Part shown: in pieces, positions 3,541 through 25,466 of the stretch
Position numbering within the stretch: position 1 is the first letter of the stretch
Layout: the number at the start of each line of letters is the position of its first letter
NCBI GenBank assembly: GCA_947628235.1
Contig: CANQZC010000004.1
Location: forward strand, 12,314-76,313
Length of the DNA: 64,000 nt
Source of the DNA: an uncultured Bacilli bacterium
GTDB taxonomy: Bacteria; Bacillota_I; Bacilli_A; RF39; UBA660
Reading direction: 5' to 3'
Program-made: the position numbers and the translations under genes
Notes under the pieces: generated by a model
Database searches by the model: none
Seen by the model: only the letters and a program-made list of their open reading frames with translations
Told to the model about the DNA's origin: nothing

Positions 3541-3633
3541 AAAGTCGCAGAAATTACGATTATTTTAAAATCGCGGATTTTGACTACCAAATTGAAGAAA
3601 AGTATGTTATAATTTAGAAAGGATAGAGTCGAC

Positions 3634-4326
3634 ATGAAAAGATATCTAATATATATGATACTACTGACAGGAATGCTTGTCATACCAAACCATGTATCTG
3701 CGATTCTCTGTGATTACCGAACAATCGCAGATTATCGGGACTTGGCAAGTAATATTCGAACCTATACCAATTATCAAATGGTAGATGGACAACCAGTTTT
3801 TACAATTACATTTACAAATATTTATGATGATATTTATATTGTTGATGAAACGAATCCAGATAAAACGAAGAAATATACAAGTAAAAACTTTGATGATGAA
3901 ACAACTCTTGTATTAAGTGGATATAAAGATAATCAGAGATTAACCTTTAAGATATACACTAGTACGGATGGATGCTACGGACAGATTTTAGGGACTAGAT
4001 ATGTTACATTACCTAATTATAATGAACTTTCAGTAGATCCTATTTGCGTCGGAGCAGAGGAGTACTCTTTATGTCAAAGATGGGGCGCTAATTCCATTAC
4101 TAACTATGACGACTTTGTAAGTAAGGTAAATAAATATAAAGAAGCAAGAAAACAAAAAATTACTTCTACAGCAGAGAAACAACCATTGACATGGAAAGAA
4201 AAAATTTTAAAGTTTATTGGTAATTATTATGTATATTTAGTTTCAGGAATTGTTATATTGATTTTAATATTAGCCGCATTAAAATCAATATCTGCAAAGA
4301 AACATGAATTCAATTTTAAAGTGTAG
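3634..4326 (+). CDS. Secreted protein with a signal peptide and a C-terminal TM anchor; unknown function
   Basis: The N-terminus MKRYLIYMILLTGMLVIPNHVSA is a signal peptide. A hydrophobic C-terminal helix is followed by basic residues. An RBS lies upstream, preceded by an extended -10 tgtTATAAT. Confidence 0.45.
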   Translation: MKRYLIYMILLTGMLVIPNHVSAILCDYRTIADYRDLASNIRTYTNYQMVDGQPVFTITFTNIYDDIYIVDETNPDKTKKYTSKNFDDETTLVLSGYKDNQRLTFKIYTSTDGCYGQILGTRYVTLPNYNELSVDPICVGAEEYSLCQRWGANSITNYDDFVSKVNKYKEARKQKITSTAEKQPLTWKEKILKFIGNYYVYLVSGIVILILILAALKSISAKKHEFNFKV

Positions 4327-4341
4327 GTGAATAAGAAAAAT

Positions 4342-7300
4342 ATGAAAAAGAAAAAAACAAGAGGGAAAACACTTTTACTATTGTGTTTAATTGCTTGCTT
4401 GATGATTTTTTCAGCAACCCCATTTGTAAGTGGGGAAGGAGAAACTCCTTCTGGTGGAGGAGTTTCTACAGGCGGTGACGATGGCGGAGAAGCAAGCGGT
4501 AAAGGTGAATCATGCAATTCTATGACAGGGAACAGTTATGTAAGATGGGGAATAAGAGTTTCTATTGTTGGAGATGATTCTAAGCCTATTGCAGGAACTC
4601 ATGCAATTAATGTAGTACCTAAAGTTTGGGAAAAAGGAGCTTATGTTGATTGGGCTAACGGAACCTTTTATTCTGTTAGCAATGGAACCAAAACGAAATA
4701 TGAATATTTAAGTTCTCTAAGTTCTGATGTCCTTAATGGAAAAGATGTAACTCCTGTTACGGAAACTACATGGAGTGGAATGGGATTCATTAGTGCAGAA
4801 GCTTTAATTAGTAAAGCGGCATTAGCTTTGAATATTCACAATAGTATTCCAAAGGACTACACCGGTAGTAAGGTTACATCTGATATCAAAGCACTATATA
4901 ACTATATAGCTACTGTAGATGCTTCTAATAATTATGCATGGACAGATGCATTATTCTCTTTACTTGGATGGAATAAAAAAGTTGCGGAATTAACTGAGGA
5001 AGAAATTTCTAGCACTTATGTTATGTTTGAACCAGTTATGGGATTAGAGGTAAAAACGGCTAGTACTGGTTGCGATAGTTATCATGGTGTCGTAGCGACG
5101 ATGACAGAGATGGCAACTATTTTATCTCCGGGAACTTCTACATGGTCTATGGGAAAAGACATGGTAGAAAAATTTGGAGCTCAGATATATGCTCCAGCAA
5201 ACTGTGGATATGATAAATGTGCTCCTAAAGATATTGAAAGTTATAATAATCTAGCAATATCAGCTGCTAAAGGAAGGGGAGCTTGGAGAAAATTAGTGGA
5301 TGCTACTACTACTCAAGCTGTTAGTTATATTTGGCTAGGTGCTGTTATTCAAAAAGAGGAATCTTGCCCTGAAGTTATCAAACAAATCAATGCTATGAAG
5401 ACAGGCGGAAAAATAGATCAGAGCAAATATGATGATTTAGTTGCAAAGGTAAAAAATGGACAGCTTACTCTTGAACTTGCTCAACAACTTAATTTACAAT
5501 CTGCTAGTGGAAAGTTCTTAGTTATGACACAACCACAAGATTATGATTATCTTGATAAAACTTACTATGGTGATACAACGATTAATCCAACAGGACTTGC
5601 AAAATGTGAAAACCACATTCCACAACCACCAACGGCTTGCGATCCTTCTTTAGCACATGCAGATGTTTATGTTGACCCTTGTACAAATGGACAAACATAC
5701 TTTAGAGATGATGGTAATGAAGATAACTGGTTAAAATGTGAAACAGCTTACTATTTTAACGGTACTGCTTATTCATCAGATAATACTGGACATGTTGCTA
5801 CAGATGTAGAAGCATGGCAAAGTGATGGAAGAATTCAAGTTAGTTCTAAGTTTCAAGCTGTTATGGGAAGCCATAGACAGGTTGGAAATAAAGAGTTTTG
5901 TGAAGTTTTCTGCCGAGAAGAATATGAAACATATTTTCCAACTTCGGTTACAGGCATAAGAGCTGGACGGACTTTTGTTTGGGGACAATCTGATGGCACT
6001 TATGGAACAGTAAGAATTATTAAACACTGTTCTAATCAAGATTATAATAAAGATGCTGGTGAAGGATATCGATTTAAAGAATGGGAAAGCAAGTATAAGG
6101 AAAATGAACGACAATTAGTTACAAATTGGCTTGACTATAACTTTAATAAATGGGCTGATGATAATATTAAAGTAACACACGCTTCTGATAGCACACTTCA
6201 TGCAAATGGAGGATGCTGCGCCGTTGAAAAAACTAATCCAATTACAGGTCGCGCATATTGCAAGACCCCTGGAACAAAATGGACAGCCAAAAAGGAACAC
6301 CCATTTACTAGCAAAGGTAATCCTGATAACAATGACTGGATGAAAGCTTATGGTAGCATAGATGCTAAATTTAATGATTATAGTTGTACTTCTGAAGACG
6401 ATGCAAAAAACAAGGTTAAAAGTCCAAATACGCAAACTTACTATAATAACTATACTATAAATGTTGCACAAGAACCTGAAATTATGGCAGAAATATTAGA
6501 GTGCGCACAAAATATAAAATATGTATATAATGCTGTTGTATATTTTGTATTCCAAGAACCTGTTAATGCTCAGTATGGACCAAACTCAAGACAATTCCAA
6601 TATGATGATGAGTTATTAATAGACCCATCTAAAGAGGATGGTTATAACAAAGACAATGTTGATACAAGCACTTGTGAACGTGCTAGAGTATATTCATATG
6701 AATGCTCAGGTTCTGATTTAGATGCTCATTGCGATGCTACTGAAGAGTGGGTACTTGATTGCTCTAAGACCCGTGTCACTTGGGATATTGAAGGAAATTG
6801 GACTTACAAATATAATGCAGAGGATTTCCAATGGTATTCTTTAAAAATTGATAGTACTTTAATCAATAAAAAGGAAAAGCCAAGCATTGATGATGCATAT
6901 TTCTATTTCCTTGGATTTGGATTACCAACAGCATTTAGTTTGACAGATGGTACCTATGATATGAAAGTCGTTGTTGGAACAATTGGAGATACTGGCGTTA
7001 CAGAAGGTGATCAACAATATAATGTTGATAACGGACATTTCTGGCCATTAACTGATTTTACAGATCATAACGTTTACGGCTTTGAATATCAATGTACATA
7101 TGAAGTAATAAACGAAATATTTGGTTATGATTGCCAATATGCGGCAGGTCAATTAACCGGGGTATCTCCAGAATATTGTGACCCAACAGATGACGGAGAT
7201 TCAAATGGATATTTGAAAGGTATTGATATTGTTTATAGATTGATTCAACTTTTAGACGATACGGATAGCATTGATAAAGCCTTCCCTGGTATCGATGGAA

Positions 7301-7719
7301 ATGGTAGAAATCAGGGAATGAACTGGAAATTACCAGAGAGTGACTTACATGACATTTTAAATTCGAATGTGATAAACAATAGCAATGCAATGTATGAATT
7401 AATGTTGGATGTAAATGCAATTCAGTACATTAGGGAAGATAATAAGAAATATTTTGATATGGGATTAGATCCTTATACTTCTTATGATTCAGAAAGCGGC
7501 GGATATAAAATTATTTGTGTCGGAGGTACTGACAAAAATAAATATTGTGCAAGTACGTTCTTGGATGATCTTCAAAATTTAAATGGTAATTTTTTAAATT
7601 ATCCACTTATGGGTACTTGTTTACCTAATGGTTTATCAGCGGAGCCAAGAGCTCGAGAAATATTAGCAAATGGTTGCGGATATTCATATGTATATCCACC
7701 ATTCACATGGACGAGGTGA
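4342..7719 (+). CDS. Very large (about 1125 aa) Cys-rich secreted protein, candidate surface or adhesin-like factor of the locus
   Basis: The ATG at 4342 is preferred over the GTG at 4327 because AGGTGA lies 11 nt upstream. A signal peptide is followed by a Gly-rich segment. There are dozens of Cys residues and no C-terminal anchor. Confidence 0.55.
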   Translation: MKKKKTRGKTLLLLCLIACLMIFSATPFVSGEGETPSGGGVSTGGDDGGEASGKGESCNSMTGNSYVRWGIRVSIVGDDSKPIAGTHAINVVPKVWEKGAYVDWANGTFYSVSNGTKTKYEYLSSLSSDVLNGKDVTPVTETTWSGMGFISAEALISKAALALNIHNSIPKDYTGSKVTSDIKALYNYIATVDASNNYAWTDALFSLLGWNKKVAELTEEEISSTYVMFEPVMGLEVKTASTGCDSYHGVVATMTEMATILSPGTSTWSMGKDMVEKFGAQIYAPANCGYDKCAPKDIESYNNLAISAAKGRGAWRKLVDATTTQAVSYIWLGAVIQKEESCPEVIKQINAMKTGGKIDQSKYDDLVAKVKNGQLTLELAQQLNLQSASGKFLVMTQPQDYDYLDKTYYGDTTINPTGLAKCENHIPQPPTACDPSLAHADVYVDPCTNGQTYFRDDGNEDNWLKCETAYYFNGTAYSSDNTGHVATDVEAWQSDGRIQVSSKFQAVMGSHRQVGNKEFCEVFCREEYETYFPTSVTGIRAGRTFVWGQSDGTYGTVRIIKHCSNQDYNKDAGEGYRFKEWESKYKENERQLVTNWLDYNFNKWADDNIKVTHASDSTLHANGGCCAVEKTNPITGRAYCKTPGTKWTAKKEHPFTSKGNPDNNDWMKAYGSIDAKFNDYSCTSEDDAKNKVKSPNTQTYYNNYTINVAQEPEIMAEILECAQNIKYVYNAVVYFVFQEPVNAQYGPNSRQFQYDDELLIDPSKEDGYNKDNVDTSTCERARVYSYECSGSDLDAHCDATEEWVLDCSKTRVTWDIEGNWTYKYNAEDFQWYSLKIDSTLINKKEKPSIDDAYFYFLGFGLPTAFSLTDGTYDMKVVVGTIGDTGVTEGDQQYNVDNGHFWPLTDFTDHNVYGFEYQCTYEVINEIFGYDCQYAAGQLTGVSPEYCDPTDDGDSNGYLKGIDIVYRLIQLLDDTDSIDKAFPGIDGNGRNQGMNWKLPESDLHDILNSNVINNSNAMYELMLDVNAIQYIREDNKKYFDMGLDPYTSYDSESGGYKIICVGGTDKNKYCASTFLDDLQNLNGNFLNYPLMGTCLPNGLSAEPRAREILANGCGYSYVYPPFTWTR

Positions 7720-7725
7720 TAGGTA

Positions 7726-8160
7726 ATGAGAGAGTCATTTTGGGGTGTTATGATTATAGGAATGGGAATAGTATCTATGTTTCTTGTATACTTTTTCCAA
7801 TCTATCACTAACACGGATGAGCATAATTATGAATTGTTAAAAGAAACAACGGAAGCAGCAATGTATGACGCGATTGATCTTGCTGCTTACCGTTATGATG
7901 AAACAGTTCGAATTGATAGAGAAATTTTTGTAGAAAGTTTCTTTAGAAGATTCGCACAGGATGCAACTTTACAACATCAATATCATGTTTGGATTTATGA
8001 TGTTCATGAGGAACCACCTAAAGTTAGTATTAGAGTAGAGACGATGGGATCTGAAATTTCTACGACGATGAGTGGTGGAGACAGCATTAATTTTAAATTA
8101 ACGGATACAATTAATGCCATTTTGGAAACAAAATGGGGTGTTAATGGATATGGAGGATAG
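7726..8160 (+). CDS. TadE-like pseudopilin/minor pilin candidate
   Basis: The MRESFWG N-terminus followed by a hydrophobic helix is shared with the ORFs at 12445 and 13000 (MRESIG, MREAVG). The small size fits a TadE/TadF-like protein. Confidence 0.35.
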   Translation: MRESFWGVMIIGMGIVSMFLVYFFQSITNTDEHNYELLKETTEAAMYDAIDLAAYRYDETVRIDREIFVESFFRRFAQDATLQHQYHVWIYDVHEEPPKVSIRVETMGSEISTTMSGGDSINFKLTDTINAILETKWGVNGYGG

Positions 8161-8165
8161 AAAAT

Positions 8166-9026
8166 ATGAATAATTTTATGATTTCTGCAAAAAGACTTAT
8201 CACAAACAAAAATACCGTTACCATCATAGGCGTTCTTATCGTTCTTGTTATTCTATACTGGGGATATAAGTCTACTATTGATAATGCGGTAAAACCAGTT
8301 AGTGTTCCATTTGCTAATAAGTTAATTGGACCACAAACTGAGATTACAGCTGATGATATCAGTTGGAAAAATGTTGCTAACGCAGCAAAAGATAATACAG
8401 TATTGATGAGAGAAAGCGACATTGTTGGAAAATACACTGCTGTAAATGCTACGATTCCAGAAGGAAGTATGTTTTATAGTGATGTATTAATCAATAAGGA
8501 AGATCTTCCTGGTTCTTGGTTAACAAGAATTAAAACAGATGTTAATGGAGTACCTGAAATTCCTTATTACATTTCTGTAAATATCGTTACTACATTTGGT
8601 AAATCTATTCAACCAGATGATTATATTGATATTTATATGAAAGCAAAAGATGAATCAGACTTGATTATGTTCGGTAAACTTATCGAAAATATTCAAGTAT
8701 TAGCAGTTAAAGATATGAGTGGTGAAGATGTTTTCAAAGATGTTGATAGCGATGCTACTCCAGCTTACTTATATTTCGGTGTATCTAGTGAGTTACATGA
8801 CTTATTAAGAAAAGCTTTATATTTAAGTAGTATTGGTGTTGAAATCATCGTTGTACCACATGGAGGTATTTCTCCAGTTACTGGAGATGTAGTTGTAAGT
8901 AGTGCTTATCTAAGAGACTATATCGATGCACACAGTGTTGTTATTCCAACAGATGAAGAATATGTTGAAAACTTAGATGGAAGCAATACAAATACAAACA
9001 CTGGAACAAATCCAGCAGGAAATTAA
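8166..9026 (+). CDS. CpaB/RcpC-like Flp pilus assembly protein
   Basis: An N-terminal TM is followed by a SAF-like segment (ITADDISW ... GKYTAVNATIPEGSMF). Placement just upstream of the CpaF ATPase supports the call. Confidence 0.45.
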   Translation: MNNFMISAKRLITNKNTVTIIGVLIVLVILYWGYKSTIDNAVKPVSVPFANKLIGPQTEITADDISWKNVANAAKDNTVLMRESDIVGKYTAVNATIPEGSMFYSDVLINKEDLPGSWLTRIKTDVNGVPEIPYYISVNIVTTFGKSIQPDDYIDIYMKAKDESDLIMFGKLIENIQVLAVKDMSGEDVFKDVDSDATPAYLYFGVSSELHDLLRKALYLSSIGVEIIVVPHGGISPVTGDVVVSSAYLRDYIDAHSVVIPTDEEYVENLDGSNTNTNTGTNPAGN

Positions 9027-9069
9027 TAAAAAGTAAAAAGAAGAATGAATAAAAAGGCTTGGTGAATAT

Positions 9070-10395
9070 ATGGATAATATATTTGATCAGATGGACTTCG
9101 GTTCATTACAACAATATCTTGACAATGACGATGTAACCGATATTTCCTACAGTAATGGAGGACAATTATGGTTAAAGACATTATCTCATGGTATATTTAG
9201 AGTAGAAAATCCTTTAATCGATAACAATTTCATGGAAAAGTTAGCATTCCAATGTTCCAATGTTGTTGGTCATAGTTTCAACGCAGCTCACCCTTTCCTA
9301 GATAGTGAAAGCGCTGAGTTGCGTATGAACTTTATCCATGATTCTATCGCTCGAAATGGGATTGCATGTGTTATTCGTAAAACACCAGCAAAGATTCGTT
9401 TGGAACATGATAAAATTATTGAAGAAAAATATATTACAGAAGATATTCATGATTTATTAATTCGTTGTGTTCACGGTCATTGTAATATGATTGTATCTGG
9501 AGAAACTGGTTCAGGTAAAACTGAGTTTGTAAAATACTTAGCTTCTCACACATACGAAAATGAAAAATTGATAACGATAGAGGATACCCTCGAACTTCAC
9601 TTGGATAGAATTTATCCACACAGAGACATCGTTGCTATGAAAACAAATAATGTTGCTAGTTATACCGATGTACTTGTTTCTTGTATGAGACAGAACCCTA
9701 AATGGATATTACTTTCCGAGGTTCGTAGTGCAGAGGCAGTACTTGCTGCCAGAAACTCTATTTCTTCTGGTCACTATATTCTTTCTACTATCCATGCCGA
9801 TAGGGCAACATCTATCCCTAACCGTATGTATAGTTTGCTAGAAACAAACCAAGAAATTGATCAATTCTTAAGATCTATCTATCGATATATTCAAATTGGT
9901 ATTTATATCCGTGGATATCAAGATAGAGTATCTAAAAGATTTGTTCGTGAGATTGCGGAAGTTTGTGAATTTTATGTTACGGAAGAAAATGAAGCAAAAT
10001 ATAATATTTTATTTCAAAAAACTCCAGCAGGAAAAATTACAAAGCATCCGCCAAGCAAATATTTAGTTGCTTATTTGGAGGCTCAAGGAGTTATCCTTCC
10101 AGAAGGTTTTATGGCAGGAGAAGCTACCGACAATGGAGTTTCTGCCTCTGAGACACTAGAAAAGGAAGATCCTTTCGCAGAACCTGCAAATAGCGAAGAA
10201 GGAGAAGGAGGACAAGAAGTACAACCTACTTCAACAGTTCCTACTGCCCCTGTAAGTCAACCAATGAATCCTATGGCAAGTCAACCTCAACCCACGATGA
10301 CTGTGCCACAACAAGTGAGTCCAATGACTCAACCACAAATGATGGCTCAAATGCCACCACAGGCAAGTCCAACGACTGCTTTTCCAACACAATAA
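9070..10395 (+). CDS. CpaF/TadA-family (VirB11-like) secretion ATPase with a C-terminal P/Q/T/M-rich tail
   Basis: Walker A GETGSGKTE, the ILLSEVRSAEA Asp-box region and the TIHA His-box are present. The last 90 or so aa are low complexity. Confidence 0.8.
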   Translation: MDNIFDQMDFGSLQQYLDNDDVTDISYSNGGQLWLKTLSHGIFRVENPLIDNNFMEKLAFQCSNVVGHSFNAAHPFLDSESAELRMNFIHDSIARNGIACVIRKTPAKIRLEHDKIIEEKYITEDIHDLLIRCVHGHCNMIVSGETGSGKTEFVKYLASHTYENEKLITIEDTLELHLDRIYPHRDIVAMKTNNVASYTDVLVSCMRQNPKWILLSEVRSAEAVLAARNSISSGHYILSTIHADRATSIPNRMYSLLETNQEIDQFLRSIYRYIQIGIYIRGYQDRVSKRFVREIAEVCEFYVTEENEAKYNILFQKTPAGKITKHPPSKYLVAYLEAQGVILPEGFMAGEATDNGVSASETLEKEDPFAEPANSEEGEGGQEVQPTSTVPTAPVSQPMNPMASQPQPTMTVPQQVSPMTQPQMMAQMPPQASPTTAFPTQ

Positions 10396-10413
10396 TAGAA
10401 AAGGAGGAAAAAT

Positions 10414-11319
10414 ATGAGTGTAACAGTAATCTTTTTTATCTGCTCTGTTATTGTTATCTTCATCTTAGTCTATAGAAGTGCGAATGGAGAAAATGTATAC
10501 AAATATGTAAGTGATAGAACAGCTTTTATCTATGATCGATTTGCACCTTATTCTTTTAAGACGATTCGTGACAAGGTAAAAGATTTAGGACAAGAATATA
10601 CGACGCACCAATACATTGTACAAGTTGTCAGTTTTGCTTTAGGTGCAGCAGTAATTTCTTACTTATATTTCTATAACTTAATTATTTCTGTCATTTATGC
10701 TATTATTGCTGTTTGCTTTATTCCTTATTTGACATATTTACGGTGTAAAAGAATTTACAGTGAATTTATTTTCGAGCAAATTCAAATTTACACAACTAAT
10801 ACAATTATGGAATTCGCAACAACACAATCTTTCGTTAAGGCACTAGAAGGTGTTTACGAATCTGGAGTACTTGAAGATCCTGTAAAGACAGATGTTAAAG
10901 TCATGATTGATATGTCTTATGAAAATGGTACAATTGATCAGTCTTTAAGTTTTATGAGTACTAAATATGACTTCTATATGGTAAAGAATATGCATCAATT
11001 GTTCTTACAAATTACGAATGAAGGTGCAAAGGATACTGCTGAGTCTCTAGAAAACATGTCACAGGATATCGATATGCTTGTTGAAAATGTATATCGAGAT
11101 AGACTAGACAGAGCTCAGTTTCATAAGAAGTTCTTACAATTTGGTATTATCTTATACTTTATGTGTATGTTACTTCAGTTCTTATTAGGATCTGAAACTT
11201 ATCTAGAAATGCTTGAGAGATGGTATGTACAATTGCTACTTCACGCGATTTTAATTGTTAATACTTTCTTCTTACTAAAAGGAGAAAAATACTATAATGA
11301 GAATGTAGGTGCGGAATAA
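10414..11319 (+). CDS. TadB-like (GspF-family) membrane protein
   Basis: Topology of an N-terminal TM, a cytoplasmic domain, then paired TMs. It sits directly after the CpaF-like ATPase and its stop overlaps the next start (TAATG). Confidence 0.45.
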   Translation: MSVTVIFFICSVIVIFILVYRSANGENVYKYVSDRTAFIYDRFAPYSFKTIRDKVKDLGQEYTTHQYIVQVVSFALGAAVISYLYFYNLIISVIYAIIAVCFIPYLTYLRCKRIYSEFIFEQIQIYTTNTIMEFATTQSFVKALEGVYESGVLEDPVKTDVKVMIDMSYENGTIDQSLSFMSTKYDFYMVKNMHQLFLQITNEGAKDTAESLENMSQDIDMLVENVYRDRLDRAQFHKKFLQFGIILYFMCMLLQFLLGSETYLEMLERWYVQLLLHAILIVNTFFLLKGEKYYNENVGAE

Positions 11320-12104
11320 TGGAATTTATAATTATTGCAGTTATTATTGTATTTATTTTGAACTATAACCGTGTAGTAGATACCAATCGGTTTGTTACCG
11401 ATACGGAACCATACTTTAGAGCATTGATGGAAGATGATTATGTTTTCTTACTTAATATTCGTTATCCAGGCCGTGATATTAATGTTAATGAATTATATGG
11501 AATTCGTGTAAGAAATGGTATTATTACGATTATTGCTTTAATCTTCTTATTCTTTAATCAATTATCTTTTATTTACATATTAATTGCTTTTATTGCTGGA
11601 TATCTAGTATTTAAAAGCCCATATAATTCTTTAAAATCTTATTACAAAGCAAATTTACACCATATTAACTTGATGCTTCCTTACTATTTAAAGAGTTTGG
11701 AAATCTTGGTACAACACTATACCGTACCAGTAGCATTAAGTAGAAGTATTGATACAGCTCCAGAAGTATTCAAGCCAGGACTACAAAGATTAGTAGCCAG
11801 AATTGATGCCGGAGATTCTAGTATTCAACCTTATATTGATTTTGCTAATGAATATCCAGTTCGTGATTCTATGCGTATGATGCGTTTGTTATATCGTTTA
11901 GGATTAGGATCTCAACAGGATAAGCACGAACAAGTTATGATGTTCTCTAGAACCGTTTCTGCTTTACAAAATAAGGCAAGAGAACAAAAATATAAGGAAC
12001 GCCTAGAAACCATGGAAAATCAAACCATGATTATGTTATTCTCTACTGGTGGTGGAGTTATGGGACTTATGTTACTATCTATGATGGTACTTATGACCTT
12101 TTAA
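11319..12104 (+). CDS. TadC-like (GspF-family) membrane protein
   Basis: Similar GspF-like topology; position in the gene order. Confidence 0.45.
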   Translation: MEFIIIAVIIVFILNYNRVVDTNRFVTDTEPYFRALMEDDYVFLLNIRYPGRDINVNELYGIRVRNGIITIIALIFLFFNQLSFIYILIAFIAGYLVFKSPYNSLKSYYKANLHHINLMLPYYLKSLEILVQHYTVPVALSRSIDTAPEVFKPGLQRLVARIDAGDSSIQPYIDFANEYPVRDSMRMMRLLYRLGLGSQQDKHEQVMMFSRTVSALQNKAREQKYKERLETMENQTMIMLFSTGGGVMGLMLLSMMVLMTF

Positions 12105-12114
12105 TCAAAATTTA

Positions 12115-12144
12115 TTGAAAAATAAAAAAGTAATGTGTTATAAT
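12115..12144 (+). promoter_or_regulatory. Sigma-A type promoter: TTGAAA, 18 nt spacer, TATAAT with an upstream TGT (extended -10)
   Basis: The hexamers can be read directly in the intergenic region upstream of the small pilin gene. Confidence 0.4.
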
Positions 12145-12171
12145 AATGTTAGAATGTAAGGTGGTGAGAGA

Positions 12172-12411
12172 ATGAAAGAAGCTGCAGGTGAAGCAAACTT
12201 AACTGTAGTTGCAATTATCTTAATTGCAGTAATCGTAGCAGTAGCTACCCCATTAATCAATAGTTTGATGAGAAGTTCAGCTAGAAGATCTTGCTGTACT
12301 GATGCCGGAGGTGTTTGGAAAAGCAACAACTGCATAGCAGCATCAAATGACAGAACTGGTCAATTCGACTCTGCTGGATATTCAAGCTGCGTATCAGAAG
12401 CTGGACAATAA
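12172..12411 (+). CDS. Small Flp/class-III-signal-peptide-like pilin candidate with a Cys-rich C-terminus
   Basis: A short charged leader MKEAAG is followed by a 25 aa hydrophobic helix. The protein is 79 aa and lies between TadC-like and TadE-like genes. It is noncanonical because the G/XXXXEY motif is absent. Confidence 0.4.
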   Translation: MKEAAGEANLTVVAIILIAVIVAVATPLINSLMRSSARRSCCTDAGGVWKSNNCIAASNDRTGQFDSAGYSSCVSEAGQ

Positions 12412-12444
12412 TCCGTTCATGTAAATTTATAGGAGGTAATAGCT

Positions 12445-12978
12445 ATGAGGGAAAGCATAGGGACTTCATTTATGTTAAATTTTATAGTTTTATTTATATT
12501 TTTAGTGTTTGCCTTCTTAGCTGGAACTTTTAGCTATTACAAGGCCTATAGAGTTAACAATTATATCGTTAACTCTCTTGAAATCTATGAAGGATATAAT
12601 GAATATTCAAAGGATCAAATGGATGTAGGACTAACTAGTATGGGATATGATATTACAACAAAGATAGATTGTCCAAGTACATGGGAAAACACGAGTCAAA
12701 GTTATTTGGCGCGTGAAAATGGAGAAATTGCTAAATTTAATGTAATAGGGCAAAGAGCTTTAGTGGATTTAAACCATCCAGACGAGGGATATTGCGTTTA
12801 TTTGTATTGGAATGATGATTCCACTCTTGCCGCAGACAATTCCTATGGATTGGAAACAACAGATGTTTACTATACTTATGGTGTCTTAACATACATGAAA
12901 TTTCGTTTTCCTGTCATTGAAAACATTTTGAGAATTCCTATATTTTCTAGAACCAATAGAATGTATTATTTTGGATAA
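12445..12978 (+). CDS. TadE/TadF-like pseudopilin candidate
   Basis: The MRESIG N-terminus plus a hydrophobic helix is paralogous to the ORFs at 7726 and 13000. Confidence 0.35.
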   Translation: MRESIGTSFMLNFIVLFIFLVFAFLAGTFSYYKAYRVNNYIVNSLEIYEGYNEYSKDQMDVGLTSMGYDITTKIDCPSTWENTSQSYLARENGEIAKFNVIGQRALVDLNHPDEGYCVYLYWNDDSTLAADNSYGLETTDVYYTYGVLTYMKFRFPVIENILRIPIFSRTNRMYYFG

Positions 12979-12999
12979 GTTAGAATGGGGTGAGCCTAG

Positions 13000-13473
13000 A
13001 TGCGTGAGGCAGTTGGAAATACTTTTATTGTAAATTTATTATTAGTCTTTTTAGGCGTTATGTCTGCTTTACTAATAGGATCTATTAGTTATTCTAAGGC
13101 GTTCAAAGTAAAAAATAGAATTATTTATATTATTGAAAAATATGGTGACTGGGATGTTACGGCAGGTGGAGAAAATTTGGTTCAAGCGGAAATAGAAGCT
13201 AACTTGAGAGATATTGGGTATCATTTAGCTTTAGCCAATAGAGAGTGTCCACCTAGAGACGGTGCTTTAACAAAATATGGTACCAATAGTACTACCACTA
13301 GTAGAACTACTTATCATTATTGCGTTTATGAGTATAACAATGAGAAAGGCCACTATTTTGGTGTGACATCATATATGCACTTTGATTTGCCTTTAATTGG
13401 AAATTATATTGAATTTCCTGTATATGGGGAGACTAAGTCATTGTATGATGTAGGTCAGCACTACAATAATTAA
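13000..13473 (+). CDS. TadE/TadF-like pseudopilin candidate
   Basis: The MREAVG N-terminus plus a hydrophobic helix. Confidence 0.35.
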   Translation: MREAVGNTFIVNLLLVFLGVMSALLIGSISYSKAFKVKNRIIYIIEKYGDWDVTAGGENLVQAEIEANLRDIGYHLALANRECPPRDGALTKYGTNSTTTSRTTYHYCVYEYNNEKGHYFGVTSYMHFDLPLIGNYIEFPVYGETKSLYDVGQHYNN

Positions 13474-13492
13474 CAAAGAAAGGTGATATTGC

Positions 13493-14467
13493 ATGAATGT
13501 TATCGTTTCTAATAAATATCAATTGATGCTAGAAAATCTAGGAATCGATGTTATTAAAAGTTTAAATGGGGAGTTTGAGGCTGATGAAATTATTAGCACT
13601 TTCCAAAACTTTTTTTATCAAAGAATGATTCTTGATATCACAGCGATTAAGGATTATAAGGATATTAGAAATCTTCAAAAATTATCTATAGCTTTACCTA
13701 TGGAAAAAGTAATTCTTTTACTAGATGATACAGAAGAAAGTACCTCTCCTGCTTATCTATCTAAGTTGATTTCTATGGGAATTTACAATTTTACAAGAAA
13801 TGTTGATGGAATTCAATATTTGTACAACCATCCAAATAGTTATCGTGATGTTGCACAATTCCATCAATTAGACGAAGTAGCTGTTGTTCCACAAATGCCA
13901 AATCAAGTTACACAAAATGTTGTTGTTCAAAATATTGGAACGGGTTATAGTGGAAGAATTATCGGTGTAAAAAATATTACCAAAAGTTCTGGCGCAACTA
14001 CATTAGTATATATGATGTATAATGAATTATCTAAGTACTATAATGTGGCAGCTATTGAAGTTGATAAAACCGATTTTACTTATTTAAAAACGCCAGGTCT
14101 TGTTTCTACTGTTAGTGGAAATGTAAATAGTGAAGTAGGTAAATATCGCGACTGTGATGCTATTATCATCGATGTCAATAACAGTGTTCAAGCAGAAGGA
14201 TTATGTAATGAAATCGTTTATTTGATTGAGCCTTCTGTTATCAAATTAAATCGTTTAACAATGGTAACTCCTCAAGTTTTACGAAATCTAAAGGATAAAA
14301 AGGTTGTATTAAATAAAAGTTTATTAAGTTCAAAAGATGTATTAGATTTTGAATATGAAGCAAGAATTAAAGTATTCTATAATCTTCCGCCTCTTGATGA
14401 ACGTGAAAAGAAAAATAAACCACTCGTTGAATTCTTAAATAAATTAGGTTTTGATCGAGTACAATAA
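13493..14467 (+). CDS. TadZ/CpaE-like protein with a receiver-like N-domain and a degenerate ParA/MinD P-loop
   Basis: The N-terminal 120 or so aa look receiver-like. The sequence GVKNITKSSGATTL occupies the place of the KGGVGKTT P-loop. The position matches that of tadZ. Confidence 0.35.
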   Translation: MNVIVSNKYQLMLENLGIDVIKSLNGEFEADEIISTFQNFFYQRMILDITAIKDYKDIRNLQKLSIALPMEKVILLLDDTEESTSPAYLSKLISMGIYNFTRNVDGIQYLYNHPNSYRDVAQFHQLDEVAVVPQMPNQVTQNVVVQNIGTGYSGRIIGVKNITKSSGATTLVYMMYNELSKYYNVAAIEVDKTDFTYLKTPGLVSTVSGNVNSEVGKYRDCDAIIIDVNNSVQAEGLCNEIVYLIEPSVIKLNRLTMVTPQVLRNLKDKKVVLNKSLLSSKDVLDFEYEARIKVFYNLPPLDEREKKNKPLVEFLNKLGFDRVQ

Positions 14468-14492
14468 CTTTAATATAATCAGAGGTGATATT

Positions 14493-15275
14493 ATGAGAAG
14501 TAAATTAACAAAAACTATTATTTTAATAGTTTTTGTCGTGTTTTTAGGGATAAAAAATGTAAGTGCTCTTACATGTACTTACTCAAGAAATGTTAGTGGT
14601 GAAGAACAAACATATACCATCAATTTAACTACTAAAGCGGTGACTTATACGTATTTTCGTATTCCTATGGCAGAACCTCAGACGACAAATAAGACGATGG
14701 TATTTTCTTTTACTACTTGTCCACCCTCTATTACTGTAACTGGAAACACCATTGCAGACGGCGGTAGTAGTGGAGATTATAAATTAAAAACTCCTACTTC
14801 GTCTTCCTCTTCCTCTTCAAATCTTGAGTATGGCGGAGGTGTTGGTCAGCTAACACACGAATCTAATGTAACTAATTGTGGAAGTATCACAGACATTCCA
14901 AGTGCTATTCCTAAAACAACAAAAATTATTTATATGTTTTTACAAGTTCTTATCCCTGTTATTTTAGTGATTATGGGAATGCTAGATTTAACAAAAGGTG
15001 TTATGTCTCAAAAAGAAGATGAGATAAAAAGAGGACAGCAAACTTTAGTAAAAAGATTGATTGCTGCGGCGATGGTCTTCTTTGTATTTGCACTTGTGAA
15101 AATGCTTGTTAGTTTTGTATCTGATGGTAATACTACTGTCACAGACTGCTTAAATTGCTTTATATCTGGCGAATGCGATGATACTGTTCCTCCTGTTGAA
15201 GGGGAAGAAAGTTCGTCTACTATGGTTCTTGAATGGAATGAAAGTTCAGATGCTCAGATTGCTATGGTAAGTTAG
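14493..15275 (+). CDS. Secreted hairpin-family protein P1 (VirB2/TrbC-like two-helix pilin-like domain) with a larger N-terminal region
   Basis: The ATG at 14493 follows a GAGGTGA RBS. It has a signal peptide and the conserved ...GMLDLTKGVMSQKEDEIKRGQQTLVKRLI... loop between two hydrophobic helices. A CG..I..IP motif and a C-terminal CLNCF complete the pattern. Confidence 0.6.
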   Translation: MRSKLTKTIILIVFVVFLGIKNVSALTCTYSRNVSGEEQTYTINLTTKAVTYTYFRIPMAEPQTTNKTMVFSFTTCPPSITVTGNTIADGGSSGDYKLKTPTSSSSSSSNLEYGGGVGQLTHESNVTNCGSITDIPSAIPKTTKIIYMFLQVLIPVILVIMGMLDLTKGVMSQKEDEIKRGQQTLVKRLIAAAMVFFVFALVKMLVSFVSDGNTTVTDCLNCFISGECDDTVPPVEGEESSSTMVLEWNESSDAQIAMVS

Positions 15276-15285
15276 GAGGACTAAT

Positions 15286-15813
15286 ATGAAAAAATTTTTT
15301 ACGATATTTCTTTTATTAGGAACTCTTTTGATAGTAATTGGAACCAGTCCTGTTCCTGTTTATGCAGATGAAGCTCCAGCATGGCTTAGTGGAGAGAAAG
15401 TTTCTTGTGGCAATATTCAAAATATTCCTAAAAAGGTTCCAGAATTTGTTAGTATGTTTATTTTAATAGCACAAGTAGTAGTACCTGTCTTACTAGTTTT
15501 ATTTGGTATGATAGATTTTGCGAAAGGTGTTATGTCTCAAAAAGAAGATGAAATCAAGAAGGGTCAACAAACTTTTATAAAAAGATTGTTGGTGGGTGCT
15601 ATCGTCTTCTTCGTCGTAGCGCTTGTCAAGATGCTTGTTAGTATTGTAGGAGATACGGATACTAATAAAGAAAATATTATTTCTTGTATCGATTGTTTTG
15701 TTAATGGAGTAGAAAACTGTGGAGGAACATCTTCTGGTGGAGGTGGAGGCGGTAATCCAGACCCAGGAAGAAATCCTACTGTAGATCGTTATCCAACTTA
15801 TGAACAAATTTAA
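15286..15813 (+). CDS. Secreted hairpin-family protein P2 with a Gly-rich C-terminal tail
   Basis: Signal peptide ending VYA; motif GMIDFAKGVMSQKEDEIKKGQQTFIKRLL; SCIDCFVNG. Confidence 0.6.
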   Translation: MKKFFTIFLLLGTLLIVIGTSPVPVYADEAPAWLSGEKVSCGNIQNIPKKVPEFVSMFILIAQVVVPVLLVLFGMIDFAKGVMSQKEDEIKKGQQTFIKRLLVGAIVFFVVALVKMLVSIVGDTDTNKENIISCIDCFVNGVENCGGTSSGGGGGGNPDPGRNPTVDRYPTYEQI

Positions 15814-15867
15814 CTACTTTTCAATTGATAAAAAAAATAGTATAATGACTTTGAAGGAGTGTATGTT

Positions 15868-16266
15868 ATGAAAAAGGAAAATTTAAGAATGCTAAGTTTA
15901 ATGAGCGTACTTTTTGTAGGTCTATTTGTACTGGCATCACCAGTTCATGCTCTTGAATGTGTTGGTGTAACAGTTGATGCTAATATTGTTAGAGTAGTTC
16001 ATTCTGTAATTGTATTAATTCAAATTGTAGCGCCAATCTTACTTGTTATTTTTGGTATGTTAGATTTAGCAAAAGGTGTTATGGCACAAAAAGAAGATGA
16101 AATCAAGAAGGGTCAACAAACTTTTATAAAAAGATTGATTACTGCAGCGATTATTTTCTTCGTTATAGCGCTTGTTAGAATGTTAGTAAGTTTTGTAACC
16201 GGTGATGGTTCTGATAGCGAGATTATGACATGTATTGATGCATTCATCAATGGTGAAAATTCGTAA
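15868..16266 (+). CDS. Secreted hairpin-family protein P3 (minimal pilin-like form)
   Basis: The ATG at 15868 lies 8 nt after GAAGGAG. It has a signal peptide ending VHA. Its motif GMLDLAKGVMAQKEDEIKKGQQTFIKRLI contains a 51-nt tract identical to P2. Confidence 0.6.
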   Translation: MKKENLRMLSLMSVLFVGLFVLASPVHALECVGVTVDANIVRVVHSVIVLIQIVAPILLVIFGMLDLAKGVMAQKEDEIKKGQQTFIKRLITAAIIFFVIALVRMLVSFVTGDGSDSEIMTCIDAFINGENS

Positions 16267-16283
16267 CTAGCAGGAGGTTACTA

Positions 16284-17381
16284 ATGGTAGAAAAATTAAA
16301 ACAACTGGATAAGAAGGTTTATATCATGGGAGGTATTGTGTTAGGAATAATTGTTCTCCTAATCATTCTCTTGGTAGTTATAAAAATTTTATCTGGTCCA
16401 GGCAAAAATTATAGTAAATTAGAAAAAAAATTATCTTCTGCAGCAGAAAGTTATTTAAAAGCTAATCCAGATTCTGTTCCTGCTGATGGGGAAAGTATTG
16501 AATTAGATTCAGCAACTTTAATTTCTGCTGGAAAGTTAAAAGAATTAAAAAAATATGTAGATGATGAGTGCACAGGTCGTGTTTTAGTTAGAAATAACGG
16601 TGGACTAGCCCAGTATTTACCACACTTAGATTGTACAAATTATACCACACAGCATCTTTATGATAAGGTCATTGAAGATAATCTTGTTGTTGATTCTGAA
16701 AATCCATATGAAGGTGGACTATATGAAGTTAACGGAGAATACATTTTCAAAGGGAAAAATGTTAATAACTATGTTTCTTTTGGTACTCTTACATGGAGAA
16801 TCATGAAAATCGATGAAAATGGCAACTTAAGACTTATTAAAACTAGTGCAGAAAAAGCGAAAAAGATATGGGATAATAAGTACAATTCAGATTTAGATAA
16901 AAATTATGGAATCAATGATTATGAAAATAGTTATCTTAGAGAGGTTCTAGACCAAAGTTACAAAGGAGTAACAGAAAAGAATCGTGCTCACATTATTCCA
17001 CATGATGTTTGTGTAGGAAAAAGAGCAAAAAACAATATGACTCTTTCTTATGATATTGATTGTGCAAGTATCTTAGAAAAACAATATATTAGTGTTATTA
17101 ATACTTTAGATTATCCAATGGCCAGTCTAGATGAAAATTGTAAAAAGGTAGGCGATGGTGCTTGTTCTAATTACAATTATCTAAATGGTACAATTAGTAC
17201 TAGTTGGACAAGTATTGGTGTTAGTGATAACTCTTATGAAGTATATGATATCAGTGCTGGTTATGTAAGTACTTTAAGAGCAAGACAAACCGTAAGTTAT
17301 AGTTGGGTTATCTATCTTAGCGGTCAAGAACTATATACAAAGGGTTCTGGAACTGCAGAAGATCCATATGTAATCCAATAG
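16284..17381 (+). CDS. Membrane-anchored extracytoplasmic protein (single N-terminal TM), unknown function; it is inserted within the hairpin-gene array
   Basis: Hydrophobic segment at residues 15-35, then a 330 aa hydrophilic domain containing Cys residues. Confidence 0.4.
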   Translation: MVEKLKQLDKKVYIMGGIVLGIIVLLIILLVVIKILSGPGKNYSKLEKKLSSAAESYLKANPDSVPADGESIELDSATLISAGKLKELKKYVDDECTGRVLVRNNGGLAQYLPHLDCTNYTTQHLYDKVIEDNLVVDSENPYEGGLYEVNGEYIFKGKNVNNYVSFGTLTWRIMKIDENGNLRLIKTSAEKAKKIWDNKYNSDLDKNYGINDYENSYLREVLDQSYKGVTEKNRAHIIPHDVCVGKRAKNNMTLSYDIDCASILEKQYISVINTLDYPMASLDENCKKVGDGACSNYNYLNGTISTSWTSIGVSDNSYEVYDISAGYVSTLRARQTVSYSWVIYLSGQELYTKGSGTAEDPYVIQ

Positions 17382-17387
17382 AGATTT

Positions 17388-17416
17388 ATTGACAAACAAA
17401 AATAGGTATAGTATAA
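17388..17416 (+). promoter_or_regulatory. Consensus sigma-A promoter: TTGACA, 17 nt spacer, TATAAT
   Basis: Perfect hexamers can be read directly. A GAGGAGG RBS lies 6 nt before the P4 ATG. Confidence 0.55.
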
Positions 17417-17441
17417 TTATTATAATTAGAGGAGGAAGAAA

Positions 17442-17831
17442 ATGTTACAAGTTTTAGCAAATATTGATACAAATTTAACTTACACTTGTGGAGACATTGG
17501 AATGAGTTTTAATGGGATGCTTCCATATGTTGTATCTATGATCGTTTTGATTATCAAGATCGTAGTACCAATTTTATTAATTATCTTTGGTATGTTAGAT
17601 TTGGCAAAAGCAGTTATGGCCCAAAAAGAGGATGAGATTAAGAAAGGTCAACAAACTTTCATTAAAAGACTTATTGCTGCTGTTATTGTATTCTTTGTAA
17701 TTACTATTGTTCAAATGATTATTAGTTTCGTATCAAATGATAATGATAGTATTGCAAGTTGCTTTAAATGCTTTGTTAACGGTGATGCTAGTGCATGTAC
17801 ACCAGATTCATCAACACAAGTTGGATTCTAG
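17442..17831 (+). CDS. Hairpin-family protein P4 with no cleavable N-terminal signal peptide; candidate major pilin-like subunit
   Basis: Motif GMLDLAKAVMAQKEDEIKKGQQTFIKRLI; SCFKCFVNG. It has its own consensus promoter upstream and two terminators downstream. Confidence 0.6.
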   Translation: MLQVLANIDTNLTYTCGDIGMSFNGMLPYVVSMIVLIIKIVVPILLIIFGMLDLAKAVMAQKEDEIKKGQQTFIKRLIAAVIVFFVITIVQMIISFVSNDNDSIASCFKCFVNGDASACTPDSSTQVGF

Positions 17832-17834
17832 TAT

Positions 17835-17866
17835 AAAAAAGATGCTCAACATCTTTTTTCTTTTAT
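17835..17866 (+). terminator. Rho-independent terminator (AAAAAGATG, loop CTCAA, CATCTTTTTT)
   Basis: A perfect hairpin followed by a T-run. A second A/T-rich hairpin at 17881..17908 is also followed by a T-run. A TGgTATAAT extended -10 at 17908..17916 follows. Confidence 0.55.
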
Positions 17867-17937
17867 TAAAGAATGATAGAAAAACTATTTATTAAATAGT
17901 TTTTTTTTGGTATAATAACATAGAAGGAGTAGCTTCT

Positions 17938-20073: not shown

Positions 20074-20093
20074 TAAAAGGGGTGTGAAAAAAT

Positions 20094-20426
20094 ATGGGAC
20101 AATATTTAATACCGGCTAACTCGAAAAAATCCATGCTAATATTAGGTGTATTTAATCAACTTGACTTATGGATATTTCTAGTTGGATTACTCATTTCGTT
20201 AGTATTACTATTAATACTTCCAGTGGACCAATTGCCGTATGCAATTACGGCAATTGCCCCTGGTGCATTTTGTGCATTCTTGGTAATGCCAATACCAAAC
20301 TATCACAATGTGCGTACTTTTTTTAGAGTAGCATTTGTATTTTATACAACTAGACAACATTTTGTATGGAAAGGATGGTGCTTTAATAGTGGCGAAGACG
20401 GCGAGAAGCAAGTATACAGAAGCTGA
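20094..20426 (+). CDS. VirB3/PrgI-like small two-TM protein
   Basis: It is 110 aa with two hydrophobic helices and sits immediately upstream of VirB4. Confidence 0.4.
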   Translation: MGQYLIPANSKKSMLILGVFNQLDLWIFLVGLLISLVLLLILPVDQLPYAITAIAPGAFCAFLVMPIPNYHNVRTFFRVAFVFYTTRQHFVWKGWCFNSGEDGEKQVYRS

Positions 20427-20934
20427 TGTTCCTGTAAAAAGCATTACGAATGGTACTATTTTACTAGATAATGGTCAAAAGGTTACTGGTGTTAAAATTA
20501 TGCCTAGAAATATCTTTATCTTGGAACCAGCAACGCAGAATGCCATTATTACTAACTTAAAAACAGTATTCAATGTTATCGATTTTGAATTCTGGATTAT
20601 TGTTGCTGATAGACCAGTAGATATTAATGTATATCTTTCTCAATTGCAATTACTATATAACACAACCACTGATCCTGCCCGTAGAAAGATTATTAACGAA
20701 GATATCAATAAAGCAAATATGTTTGCTGCTAATAATGTAGTTGATACAGAATACTTCTTAGTTTTTAAAGAGAAAGATAATGAACTTATCAATAAGAGAA
20801 TTAGAAACTTAATTGGAAACTTTGCAAATGCTGGATTAACGGCATTCCAAACAACCAATGACGATTTAAGAATGATTTTAGACAACTTCTTAAATGGTGG
20901 TATGACAACAGAATTTGGGACGGTGTTATCATGA
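20335..20934 (+). CDS. VirB4 N-terminal-domain-like protein encoded as a separate ORF; start uncertain (the ATG at 20335 overlaps the previous gene; a GTG at 20389 follows AAGGATGG)
   Basis: Its 199 aa plus the next ORF's 595 aa add up to a typical VirB4 length, with Walker A about 440 aa from the combined start. Its stop overlaps the next start in ATGA. Confidence 0.4.
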   Translation: MYFIQLDNILYGKDGALIVAKTARSKYTEADVPVKSITNGTILLDNGQKVTGVKIMPRNIFILEPATQNAIITNLKTVFNVIDFEFWIIVADRPVDINVYLSQLQLLYNTTTDPARRKIINEDINKANMFAANNVVDTEYFLVFKEKDNELINKRIRNLIGNFANAGLTAFQTTNDDLRMILDNFLNGGMTTEFGTVLS

Positions 20935-22718: not shown

Positions 22719-22741
22719 AATTTTAGCGAGTAGGTGAATCT

Positions 22742-24763: not shown

Positions 24764-24766
24764 GAG

Positions 24767-25456: not shown

Positions 25457-25466
25457 GAGGTGCTAT

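Follow-up and report, generated by a model that had tools for sequence, protein, structure and literature searches.

How can a pilin be matured when the gene set around it carries no recognisable prepilin peptidase, and is the protein concerned a pilin at all? This question is raised by a 79-residue protein encoded in a stretch of 64,000 nucleotides from an uncultured Bacilli bacterium of the order RF39 (contig CANQZC010000004.1), the whole of which is called the window below. A first, sequence-only reading had described the protein as a non-canonical small pilin, and it is indeed best read as a type-IV-pilin-like subunit in a Tad-like gene set. On balance, we favour the view that it serves as the major pilin in a highly divergent Tad-like (type IVc-like) filament and is cleaved after Gly6 by a peptidase encoded at an unlinked site. 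We hold this view because the protein shows conservation of the pilin type and fits the definition of a class III signal peptide (SPIII), because it is accompanied by a CpaF-type ATPase, a CpaB-like protein and proteins with the same type of leader in a syntenic module, and because related modules on Bacillus plasmids carry Flp-like pilins together with a probable A24-like peptidase.

The protein and its gene

The open reading frame (ORF) and the elements within and before it are the following.

12172..12411, + strand: ORF of the 79-residue pilin-like protein (translation MKEAAGEANLTVVAIILIAVIVAVATPLINSLMRSSARRSCCTDAGGVWKSNNCIAASNDRTGQFDSAGYSSCVSEAGQ)
12172..12189, + strand: leader of the pilin, M1-G6
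12199..12270, + strand: hydrophobic alpha1-N of the pilin (about L10-M33)
12292..12408, + strand: Cys-stapled head of the pilin (C41-Q79), with predicted disulfides
12158..12167, + strand: Shine-Dalgarno sequence of the pilin gene, AAGGTGGTGA, read from the sequence and kept across related loci
12115..12144, + strand: promoter-like site, TTGAAA-18 nt-TATAAT with an extended -10 TG (11/12 match)

The sequence-only reading was right in that the ORF encodes 79 residues, in which a leader MKEAAG is followed by a hydrophobic stretch; after the leader, the protein continues as EANLTVVAIILIAVIVAVATPLINSLM. The residue after Gly6 (+1) is Glu and that at +5 is Thr, with no EY, no Phe at +1 and no Glu at +5, in agreement with the earlier remark that the protein has a Glu at +1 and lacks the G/XXXXEY motif. 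Other details need correction. The hydrophobic helix, given as 25 residues, is present, but its strictly hydrophobic run spans about 21-23 residues (L10..M33) and the predicted helix extends from 8 to 44. The Cys residues number four (C41, C42, C54 and C73), all in the last 39 residues, rather than five in the last 45, and position 12115, given as the start of the stretch described, lies outside the ORF and is the first base of the promoter-like site.

That site is the top sigma-70-like match within 7000..15000 of the window. In nearly all fetched related loci, TGnTATAAT and the same Shine-Dalgarno sequence stand at equal distance before the pilin ATG, a pattern indicating that the gene owns a conserved promoter inside the operon. 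An internal promoter of this kind is often found for major pilin genes. The gene is a real and conserved one and is probably highly expressed, since it combines its own conserved extended -10 promoter with a strong Shine-Dalgarno sequence.

Two related loci depart from this arrangement. In one metagenome-assembled genome (MAG; locus L064, 9372..10375), the pilin gene and its promoter are inverted relative to the remaining operon. The inverted piece is edged by 17-nt inverted repeats (9475-9491 and 10359-10375), and the minor-pilin genes are faced by another copy of the promoter region, which has diverged. The locus may hold an invertible pilin cassette, or the rearrangement may have become fixed. 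In one other genome (L021, 9407..14643), there are three tandem pilin copies (98 residues, 77 residues and one truncated). A polytopic protein of 810 residues and a protein with nine transmembrane (TM) segments are inserted between these pilins and the minor-pilin genes. The C-terminus of the former resembles a YfhO fragment found at the start of the window, and for the latter a GT-C-type glycosyltransferase is only a guess.

A conserved N-terminus and a variable head

At least 774 relatives of the pilin were found at E<=0.01 by a word-indexed search, an exhaustive profile search yielded 304 clusters at 50% identity, and a genome scan located the protein in 246 species-level genomes, two of the matches being complete chromosomes of about 1.5 Mb. 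All carriers are MAG-derived, their labels being uncultured Bacilli, Tenericutes or Mollicutes. Among them are Firmicutes bacterium CAG:822 and Candidatus Coprosoma, both placed in the order RF39 by GTDB (PMC8035907). No relative was found on viral contigs scanned with the pilin, nor on plasmids searched by tblastn. Pfam and NCBIfam gave only sub-threshold noise for the pilin and 26 relatives (DUF7155 at E=0.049, FeoB_associated, LrgB), and by sequence the pilin founds a family that is unannotated.

Conservation was counted per position over 244 diverse members. Positions 1-18 (M K E A [AST] G E A N [MLI] T V ...) are 94-100% conserved, with Gly6 at 99%. In the head, C42 (99%), G46 (98%), G47 (92%) and C54 (96%) are maintained within an otherwise variable C-terminus, and C73 and C41 reach 76% and 35%, respectively. 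Type IV pilins that form filaments are recognised by just this combination of an invariant N-terminal helix with a head that evolves fast, and a Sec signal peptide would show the opposite pattern.

This pattern bears directly on the idea, raised earlier, that signal peptidase I (SPase I) processes the protein. In its full form, this idea would make residues 1-25 an ordinary signal peptide, cut by SPase I after A-V-A at 23-25, and the remainder a Cys-rich peptide exported through Sec, such as a pheromone, a bacteriocin or an adhesin module. The AXA-like A23-V24-A25 does follow the hydrophobic stretch, and the Cys domain can stand as an independent extracytoplasmic module, as in protein P0208. 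However, signal peptides evolve fast, and in this family conservation is highest at residues 1-18 whereas positions 23-25, AVA in this protein, vary. Further, the net charge of the n-region is neutral to acidic, helix prediction gives an unbroken stretch from 8 to 44, and the operon context also speaks against a secreted peptide. We regard this explanation as very improbable, and the SPase I route as unlikely because an invariant N-terminus is the opposite of a disposable Sec signal peptide.

The head motif CC.D.GG.W...C...C recurs on other scaffolds. P0208 carries the Cys domain in two copies behind a lipoprotein signal peptide, and in P0255 and P0257 it stands behind an N-terminal zinc-ribbon and one or more TM segments. 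To judge from these sequences, the head domain acts as an independent extracytoplasmic module, its location following from its duplication behind the lipoprotein signal peptide of P0208.

The invariant EAN[LMI]T of the family (E7-A8-N9-L10-T11, 12190..12204), at the predicted mature N-terminus, also reads as a sequon for bacterial N-glycosylation, D/E-X-N-X-S/T. A chance-level match to STT3/PglB_core (E=0.014) was seen for the protein in the TadB position of the locus. Glycosylation at EAN[LMI]T was dropped as an explanation: the motif is situated where the TM helix ends on the cytoplasmic side, which makes it an implausible target, and the fit is probably a coincidence.

Fit to known pilin classes

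By definition, an SPIII has a hydrophilic leader whose last residue is Gly or Ala; 20-25 mostly hydrophobic residues (alpha1-N) come next, and Glu5 is frequent and not obligatory (PMC10191384). The pilin fits this definition, with the leader MKEAAG and the hydrophobic stretch after it. The more specific class signatures are not found. Among 26 family members, none matches the N_methyl/IPR012902 signature (G/FTLxE) with Pfam at E<=0.5, and none shows a Flp_Fap (PF04964) match; nor does the pilin have the EY of the G/XXXXEY motif. When tested as a VirB2-like T4SS_pilin (PF18895), the protein proved to have a single TM segment and no match to PF18895.

An AlphaFold2 model of the pilin (predicted local distance difference test, pLDDT, 83) places a coil at 1-7 before a helix that covers 8-44; a beta-hairpin (47-56) and a short helix (67-76) follow. 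The model suggests a lollipop, a long helix with a mini-head, in which the four Cys would be positioned so as to fasten the head where the long helix ends. The best PDB sequence match of the pilin profile is, weakly (E=0.044), the alpha1-N of the Gram-positive type IV pilin PilE1 (8pfb_G).

The module around the pilin gene

The genes upstream and downstream of the pilin gene form a module, listed here in order.

1939..7719, + strand: upstream conserved genes, encoding a 533-residue protein, a 230-residue secreted or anchored protein and a variable secreted protein of 1130 residues (by synteny)
1939..3540, + strand: the 533-residue protein, five TM segments and an extracellular domain, with no Pfam, NCBIfam or PDB similarity
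7726..8160, + strand: DUF5411 protein with a pilin-like N-terminus (MRESFWG and a TM segment; Pfam DUF5411, E=5e-46)
8166..9026, + strand: CpaB/RcpC-like protein, weak (TIGR03177 pilus_cpaB, E=3e-6; Pfam RcpC, E=6e-4; both below curated cut-offs)
9070..10395, + strand: CpaF/TadA-type secretion ATPase (Pfam T2SSE, E=2e-26)
10414..11319, + strand: polytopic protein in the TadB position, five hydrophobic segments, with no Pfam or PDB sequence match
11319..12104, + strand: polytopic protein in the TadC position, a probable platform protein
12445..12978, + strand: minor pilin-like protein 1 (MRESIG/TSF; leader and TM segment)
13000..13473, + strand: minor pilin-like protein 2 (MREAVG/NTF; leader and TM segment)
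13493..14467, + strand: 324-residue cytoplasmic protein after the minor-pilin genes, present in 80/86 loci, with no Pfam or PDB match

The order of the module (533-residue protein, 230-residue protein, giant secreted protein, DUF5411, CpaB-like protein, T2SSE ATPase, two polytopic proteins, pilin, two minor pilin-like proteins, 324-residue protein) is kept in the fetched RF39-type loci. The 230-residue protein is known by synteny only, the variable giant secreted protein occurs in some loci only, and the 533-residue protein is conserved at the head of the module in at least 60 loci. Where the flank is annotated, scpA and scpB lie just upstream (ORFs 518..1797 in the window).

The ATPase has its best PDB matches to CpaF (2.5e-17), FlaI (9e-15) and VirB11 (1e-12). 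It is nearer to CpaF and FlaI than to ComGA, with a score below the NCBIfam equivalog cut-offs. It ends in a Pro/Gln-rich low-complexity tail of about 95 residues (10100..10395), which is unusual for the family.

The two polytopic proteins have the place and topology expected for TadB and TadC. Both are 61-93% identical across loci (66-91% for the TadB-position protein), neither matches T2SSF in Pfam or in a profile search against PDB, and hhalign gave no signal of paralogy between them beyond the N-terminal TM segment. In a moderate model (pLDDT 67), the TadC-position protein has as its top Foldseek local matches the GspF-type domain of OutF and SpoIIIAB. This is a weak signal, and the weakly PilC/GspF-like fold of the model points to a probable platform protein. 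Pfam found neither T2SSF nor ParA in 54 members of the TadB-position, TadC-position and 324-residue families. A TadZ (ParA/MinD-like ATPase with a receiver-like domain) was sought in the 324-residue protein, which has no Pfam or PDB match.

The pilin and the proteins encoded at 7726, 12445 and 13000 have in common a leader of the type M[KR]E[SA]x[GA]; in the window, the latter three begin with MRESFWG, MRESIG and MREAVG, respectively. A comparison of the four families across 72-89 related loci gave MKEAAG/E for the major pilin, MRE[SG]IG/[ST] for the 12445 family (83 loci), M[KR]E[AS]I[G/A/S/N]/N for the 13000 family (81 loci) and M[KR]ESFW[G/A] for the DUF5411 family (72 loci). By sequence, this shared leader would be a short one of class III type, lacking Phe at +1, Glu at +5 and EY in all four, which fits SPIII but not the N_methyl, Flp G/XXXXEY or TadE signatures. 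The proteins encoded at 12445 and 13000 appear as paralogues with a common motif C.Y.Y...Y..V..YM.F..P. The sequence-only reading had called all three accompanying proteins TadE-like. Their M[KR]E[SA] N-termini and the absence of the canonical motif were correctly noted, but no TadE model (PF07811) is matched by any of them in Pfam or NCBIfam, so that the label holds by analogy; they may be called pilin-like by N-terminus and position only.

These neighbours also bear on a different role for the 79-residue protein, that of a non-polymerising bitopic part, in the membrane or at the cell surface, of an envelope complex built from the Tad-like module and the adjacent type IV secretion system (T4SS). 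Such a role would suit the failure of Foldseek to match the protein structurally to pilins, the weakly supported platform identity of the neighbours and the occurrence of the Cys domain on the non-pilin scaffolds P0208, P0255 and P0257. It sits poorly, however, with a gene that has its own strong conserved promoter, with an N-terminal helix of extreme conservation, with the location of that gene between platform-like genes and minor-pilin-like genes whose products bear the same leader, with a CpaF-type ATPase as partner, and with the Flp-like pilins found at the same position in related plasmid modules. We therefore consider a non-polymerising component improbable.

The search for a prepilin peptidase

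If the protein is a pilin, where is the enzyme that matures it? The earlier statement that the window holds no recognisable TadV/A24 peptidase stands. A Pfam scan of all window ORFs with at least three hydrophobic segments and of most other ORFs of the locus (about 50 proteins) found no Peptidase_A24, and Pfam tables of relatives showed no A24 or TadV within ±10 kb of about 95 related loci. In 92 related loci, 331 ORFs have at least three hydrophobic segments; the 30 of these without a homologue in the window are transporters, glycosyltransferases, DagK, FtsX and similar proteins or spurious antisense ORFs, and none is an A24 peptidase. The few kilobases beyond the window ends hold FolC-like, MiaA, Rce1-like, RimP and NusA genes and no A24. 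A scan of the window for GxGD/GD.K membrane motifs returned soluble or extracellular contexts only, and phmmer and hmmsearch with a 181-residue A24-like family of Bacillus plasmids (see below) against the six-frame window and RF39-type loci returned noise only.

Prepilin peptidases have been modelled as 'loner' components, with MSH loci lacking one (PMC6668835), and the bifidobacterial tadV lies outside the tad locus (PMC7979991). Because loner or shared peptidases are thus ordinary, a peptidase-free locus appears, by comparison, common for such pili. The earlier emphasis on a missing linked peptidase was right in that none is found nearby, but the absence is not anomalous as such.

Two polytopic proteins and one C39-like domain deserve mention in this connection. 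First, the multi-TM N-terminal domain of the 533-residue protein (1939..3540) had been named as one possible route of processing. In its favour are its conservation at the head of the module, its invariant acidic residues and a G-x-G-F-D-x-K-like loop at residues 150-156. By contrast, profile searches against PDB and Pfam showed no A24 similarity, NCBIfam gave no match, and the Bacillus A24-like profile did not match it either. Its conserved acidic residues, D130 on one side and D154/D159/D163 on the other, flank one TM segment; D130 and D154 therefore lie on opposite membrane faces, 24 residues apart, which is unlike the A24 arrangement, whereas in the plasmid A24-like family the two Asp are on the same face and about 59 residues apart. 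Moreover, it is in cytoplasmic loops, and not in the membrane, that the conserved residues are concentrated. A peptidase role for this protein is scarcely credible, so that two of the three routes proposed earlier, through this protein and through SPase I, are disfavoured. Second, a 202-residue protein with five TM segments is encoded just after rmuC (32366..32974). It is DUF2238-like below threshold (E=3e-4) and carries FFGGDAQR in the membrane, as the one further small polytopic protein in the vicinity of the locus that has a GGD motif. No similarity to the A24-like profile was seen. Finally, the C39-like domain of the protein encoded at 25425..26855 was considered for leader cleavage and rejected: situated outside the cytoplasm and joined to SpoIID in one protein, it is probably a cell-wall hydrolase of the T4SS.

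A more radical answer is that the same filament subunit matures without any A24 enzyme, either unprocessed, with MKEAAGE serving as an assembly or recognition motif, or cut by a new membrane protease. This would agree with the absence of A24 matches in the window and in the ~95 loci, including with the Bacillus A24-like profile, with a leader as invariant as the mature N-terminus and with a -1 residue of minor pilin-like protein 2 that is not always Gly or Ala. Against it, every characterised type IV filament uses an A24-family peptidase (PMC10191384), the search covered about 84 kb of one genome and ±10 kb elsewhere, in genomes of about 1.5 Mb, and Gly6 of the major pilin is 99% conserved, as expected for a cleavage site. 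We judge maturation without A24 to be unlikely. Slightly less likely still is its genome-wide form, in which RF39-type carriers would have no A24/GxGD peptidase at all and the four M[KR]E[SA]x[GA] proteins would remain unprocessed or be matured by a new enzyme. If true, this would be the first type-IV-filament-like machine to work with no A24 enzyme, and it would do so in a module inherited together with a T4SS.

Cleavage by an unlinked A24-type peptidase thus remains the preferred answer, and several observations weigh against it or against the pilin assignment that underlies it. No peptidase was found in the window or in nearby loci, so that cleavage of the leader is a prediction only, whereas the related Bacillus modules hold a candidate peptidase in their cluster. 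Each position of MKEAAG is 84-100% conserved, a degree of invariance that a leader destined for removal would not strictly require. Among known substrates, Glu is unusual at +1, and the -1 residue of the 13000 family is not always Gly, being in some members Ala, Ser or Asn, residues that classical A24 enzymes tolerate poorly at this position. As to the pilin itself, none of 26 family members matches the Pfam pilin models N_methyl, Flp_Fap or TadE, and a Foldseek comparison of the pilin model with PDB gave no match.

The adjacent T4SS

14451..29783, + strand: Gram-positive T4SS (Pfam), encoding VirB2-like T4SS_pilin paralogues, TrbL/VirB6, PrgI-like, TraC-like and VirB4 proteins, together with a CHAP hydrolase, a SpoIID protein with a C39-like domain and a VirD4 coupling protein

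In most loci this T4SS adjoins the module, and its PrgI_like and TraC-like components are also seen in relatives. In some loci, for example L006, L045 and L083, it is missing next to the module; L006 represents a strain with a 100% identical pilin and no trace of the whole block from VirB6 to the coupling protein. Pfam scans of the window proteins recognised no relaxase or integrase at the T4SS/module locus. The flanks are housekeeping genes, with scpA/scpB upstream and, in the window, rmuC, RNase R-like and smpB-like ORFs downstream. Because of these flanks and of the synteny across fetched genomes, the T4SS does not have the look of a mobile element. The locus that combines the Tad-like module with the T4SS is a core, vertically inherited one in a large uncultured gut lineage with reduced genomes.

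The PF18895 T4SS_pilin domain was detected in the window at 33528, 34864 and 43728, and more weakly at 14451 and 17442. Seven paralogues carry a VirB2-like two-TM module with a conserved ..QKEDEIKKGQQTFIKRL.. loop (14451..17831, 33528..36189 and 43728..44174). Some of them have large Cys-rich N-terminal extensions (431 and 441 residues), and three lie outside the T4SS cluster, up to 14 kb past the coupling protein. Close to the C-terminus of the VirD4-like coupling protein lie Pro-rich IPNPE repeats (29400..29700), which are unusual for its family.

Proposed mechanism and significance

In the mechanism that we propose, the prepilin would insert with its N-terminus inside and its C-terminus outside. 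The six-residue leader MKEAAG would be cut on the cytoplasmic face after Gly6, giving a mature pilin that starts with Glu. The cut would be made by an aspartic prepilin peptidase whose gene lies elsewhere in the genome and which may have diverged too far to be recognised by the A24 model. The CpaF-like ATPase, together with the two platform-like membrane proteins, would then pull the pilin from the membrane and polymerise it through the invariant N-terminal helix, a step that the three pilin-like proteins with the M[KR]E[SA]x[GA] leader may prime. Two disulfides would staple the small head, made of the beta-hairpin and the short helix. The filament would probably provide cell contact for the neighbouring T4SS. 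To our knowledge, models of Gram-positive conjugation include no Tad-like contact filament.

If this is true, the locus represents an unrecognised clade of type IV filaments, whose pilin, platform-like proteins, minor pilin-like proteins and possibly peptidase escape current family models. The invariant MKEAAGEAN[LMI]T N-terminus would offer a precise signature for locating such systems, as well as a defined substrate, with Glu at +1 and no Glu5, for studies of prepilin-peptidase specificity. Surface contact organelles are likely to be central to the lifestyle of this gut lineage with reduced genomes.

Comparison with known systems

The closest general parallel is with the Gram-positive Tad (type IVc) systems, such as those of Bifidobacterium. 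Both have a CpaF/TadA-type ATPase followed by two separate polytopic proteins, a very small major pilin directly after these, two paralogous minor pilin-like genes and a CpaB-like protein, and in both the peptidase would lie outside the locus (for bifidobacteria, PMC7979991). The locus differs from Tad in lacking G/XXXXEY and in leaving the Flp_Fap, TadE, T2SSF and A24 models unmatched, in a leader of only six residues with Glu at +1, in an additional DUF5411 pilin-like protein, and in being chromosomal, vertically inherited and fused to a T4SS. Its pilin would also bear a disulfide-stapled mini-head, whereas Tad pilins are described as having no globular domain (PMC11067988). The sequence-only reading had placed the 79-residue protein where flp sits in Tad loci. 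This is apt for the Gram-positive tad order of B. breve UCC2003, with ATPase, two membrane proteins, pilin and two minor pilins; it does not apply to the canonical flp-tadV-rcp order, which is not the order found here.

ComGC, of the Com pseudopilus of monoderms, is likewise a small pilin with a short mixed-charge leader ending in Gly. The B. subtilis protein contains a disulfide within its own chain, and the gene of its peptidase, comC, lies apart from the comG operon. ComGA and ComGB assemble ComGC, which bears the canonical G/FTLxE motif (N_methyl), whereas the pilin studied here is unmatched by N_methyl. A predicted 'secretion-related operon' of Roseburia, Ruminococcus and Eubacterium contains CpaF, PilC/GspF and DUF5411 (Miller et al. 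2022, PMC9523054). It resembles the present locus in joining DUF5411 to an ATPase of the CpaF family and to a platform protein (a probable one in our case), again in gut Firmicutes, the other genes being unannotated, but it belongs to a different lineage (Clostridia), and the paper describes no pilin, peptidase or T4SS linkage.

The most informative parallel is found on plasmids of the Bacillus cereus group (pXO1, pE81-53), whose proteins are weakly matched by the TadC-position protein (31% identity, E about 7e-4). The plasmid modules have a similar order of DUF5411, a CpaB-like protein (annotated CpaB for the pXO1 counterpart of the 8166..9026 protein), T2SSE ATPase, two unannotated polytopic proteins and one or more small pilins, and they too adjoin a Gram-positive T4SS (VirB4, PrgI/TcpE-type protein, coupling protein). 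Unlike the locus studied here, which has the 324-residue protein instead, they encode an AAA_31 ATPase, its gene being placed after the CpaB-like gene and before that of the T2SSE ATPase. Their pilins are Flp-like, with long leaders ending in Gly and no Cys head, and are followed by DUF4320 rather than by minor pilins. They also reside on mobile plasmids with relaxases, whereas no relaxase or integrase was recognised here. A 'VirB11' region has been described for pAW63/pXO2 (PMC1196294), and the plasmid Tad-like module is evidently that region.

Beside the plasmid pilins lies a 'hypothetical protein' of 181-182 residues with four to five TM segments (L097, 2349..2897; L102, that is pXO1, 8968..9513), which occurs in 338 Bacillus plasmids. 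In an alignment of this family (A9), an invariant Asp in TDLKYRKTKN is followed about 59 residues later by an invariant S-x-G-D-T-K-M, and 4/6 members touch Peptidase_A24, only at E>=0.16. These features suggest that it is probably a very divergent TadV/prepilin peptidase missed by PGAP and Pfam. Taken together, the adjacency of the T4SS and the kinship with the 'VirB11' modules of pXO1 and pAW63 suggest that some T4SSs of monoderms use a Tad-like filament for cell contact.

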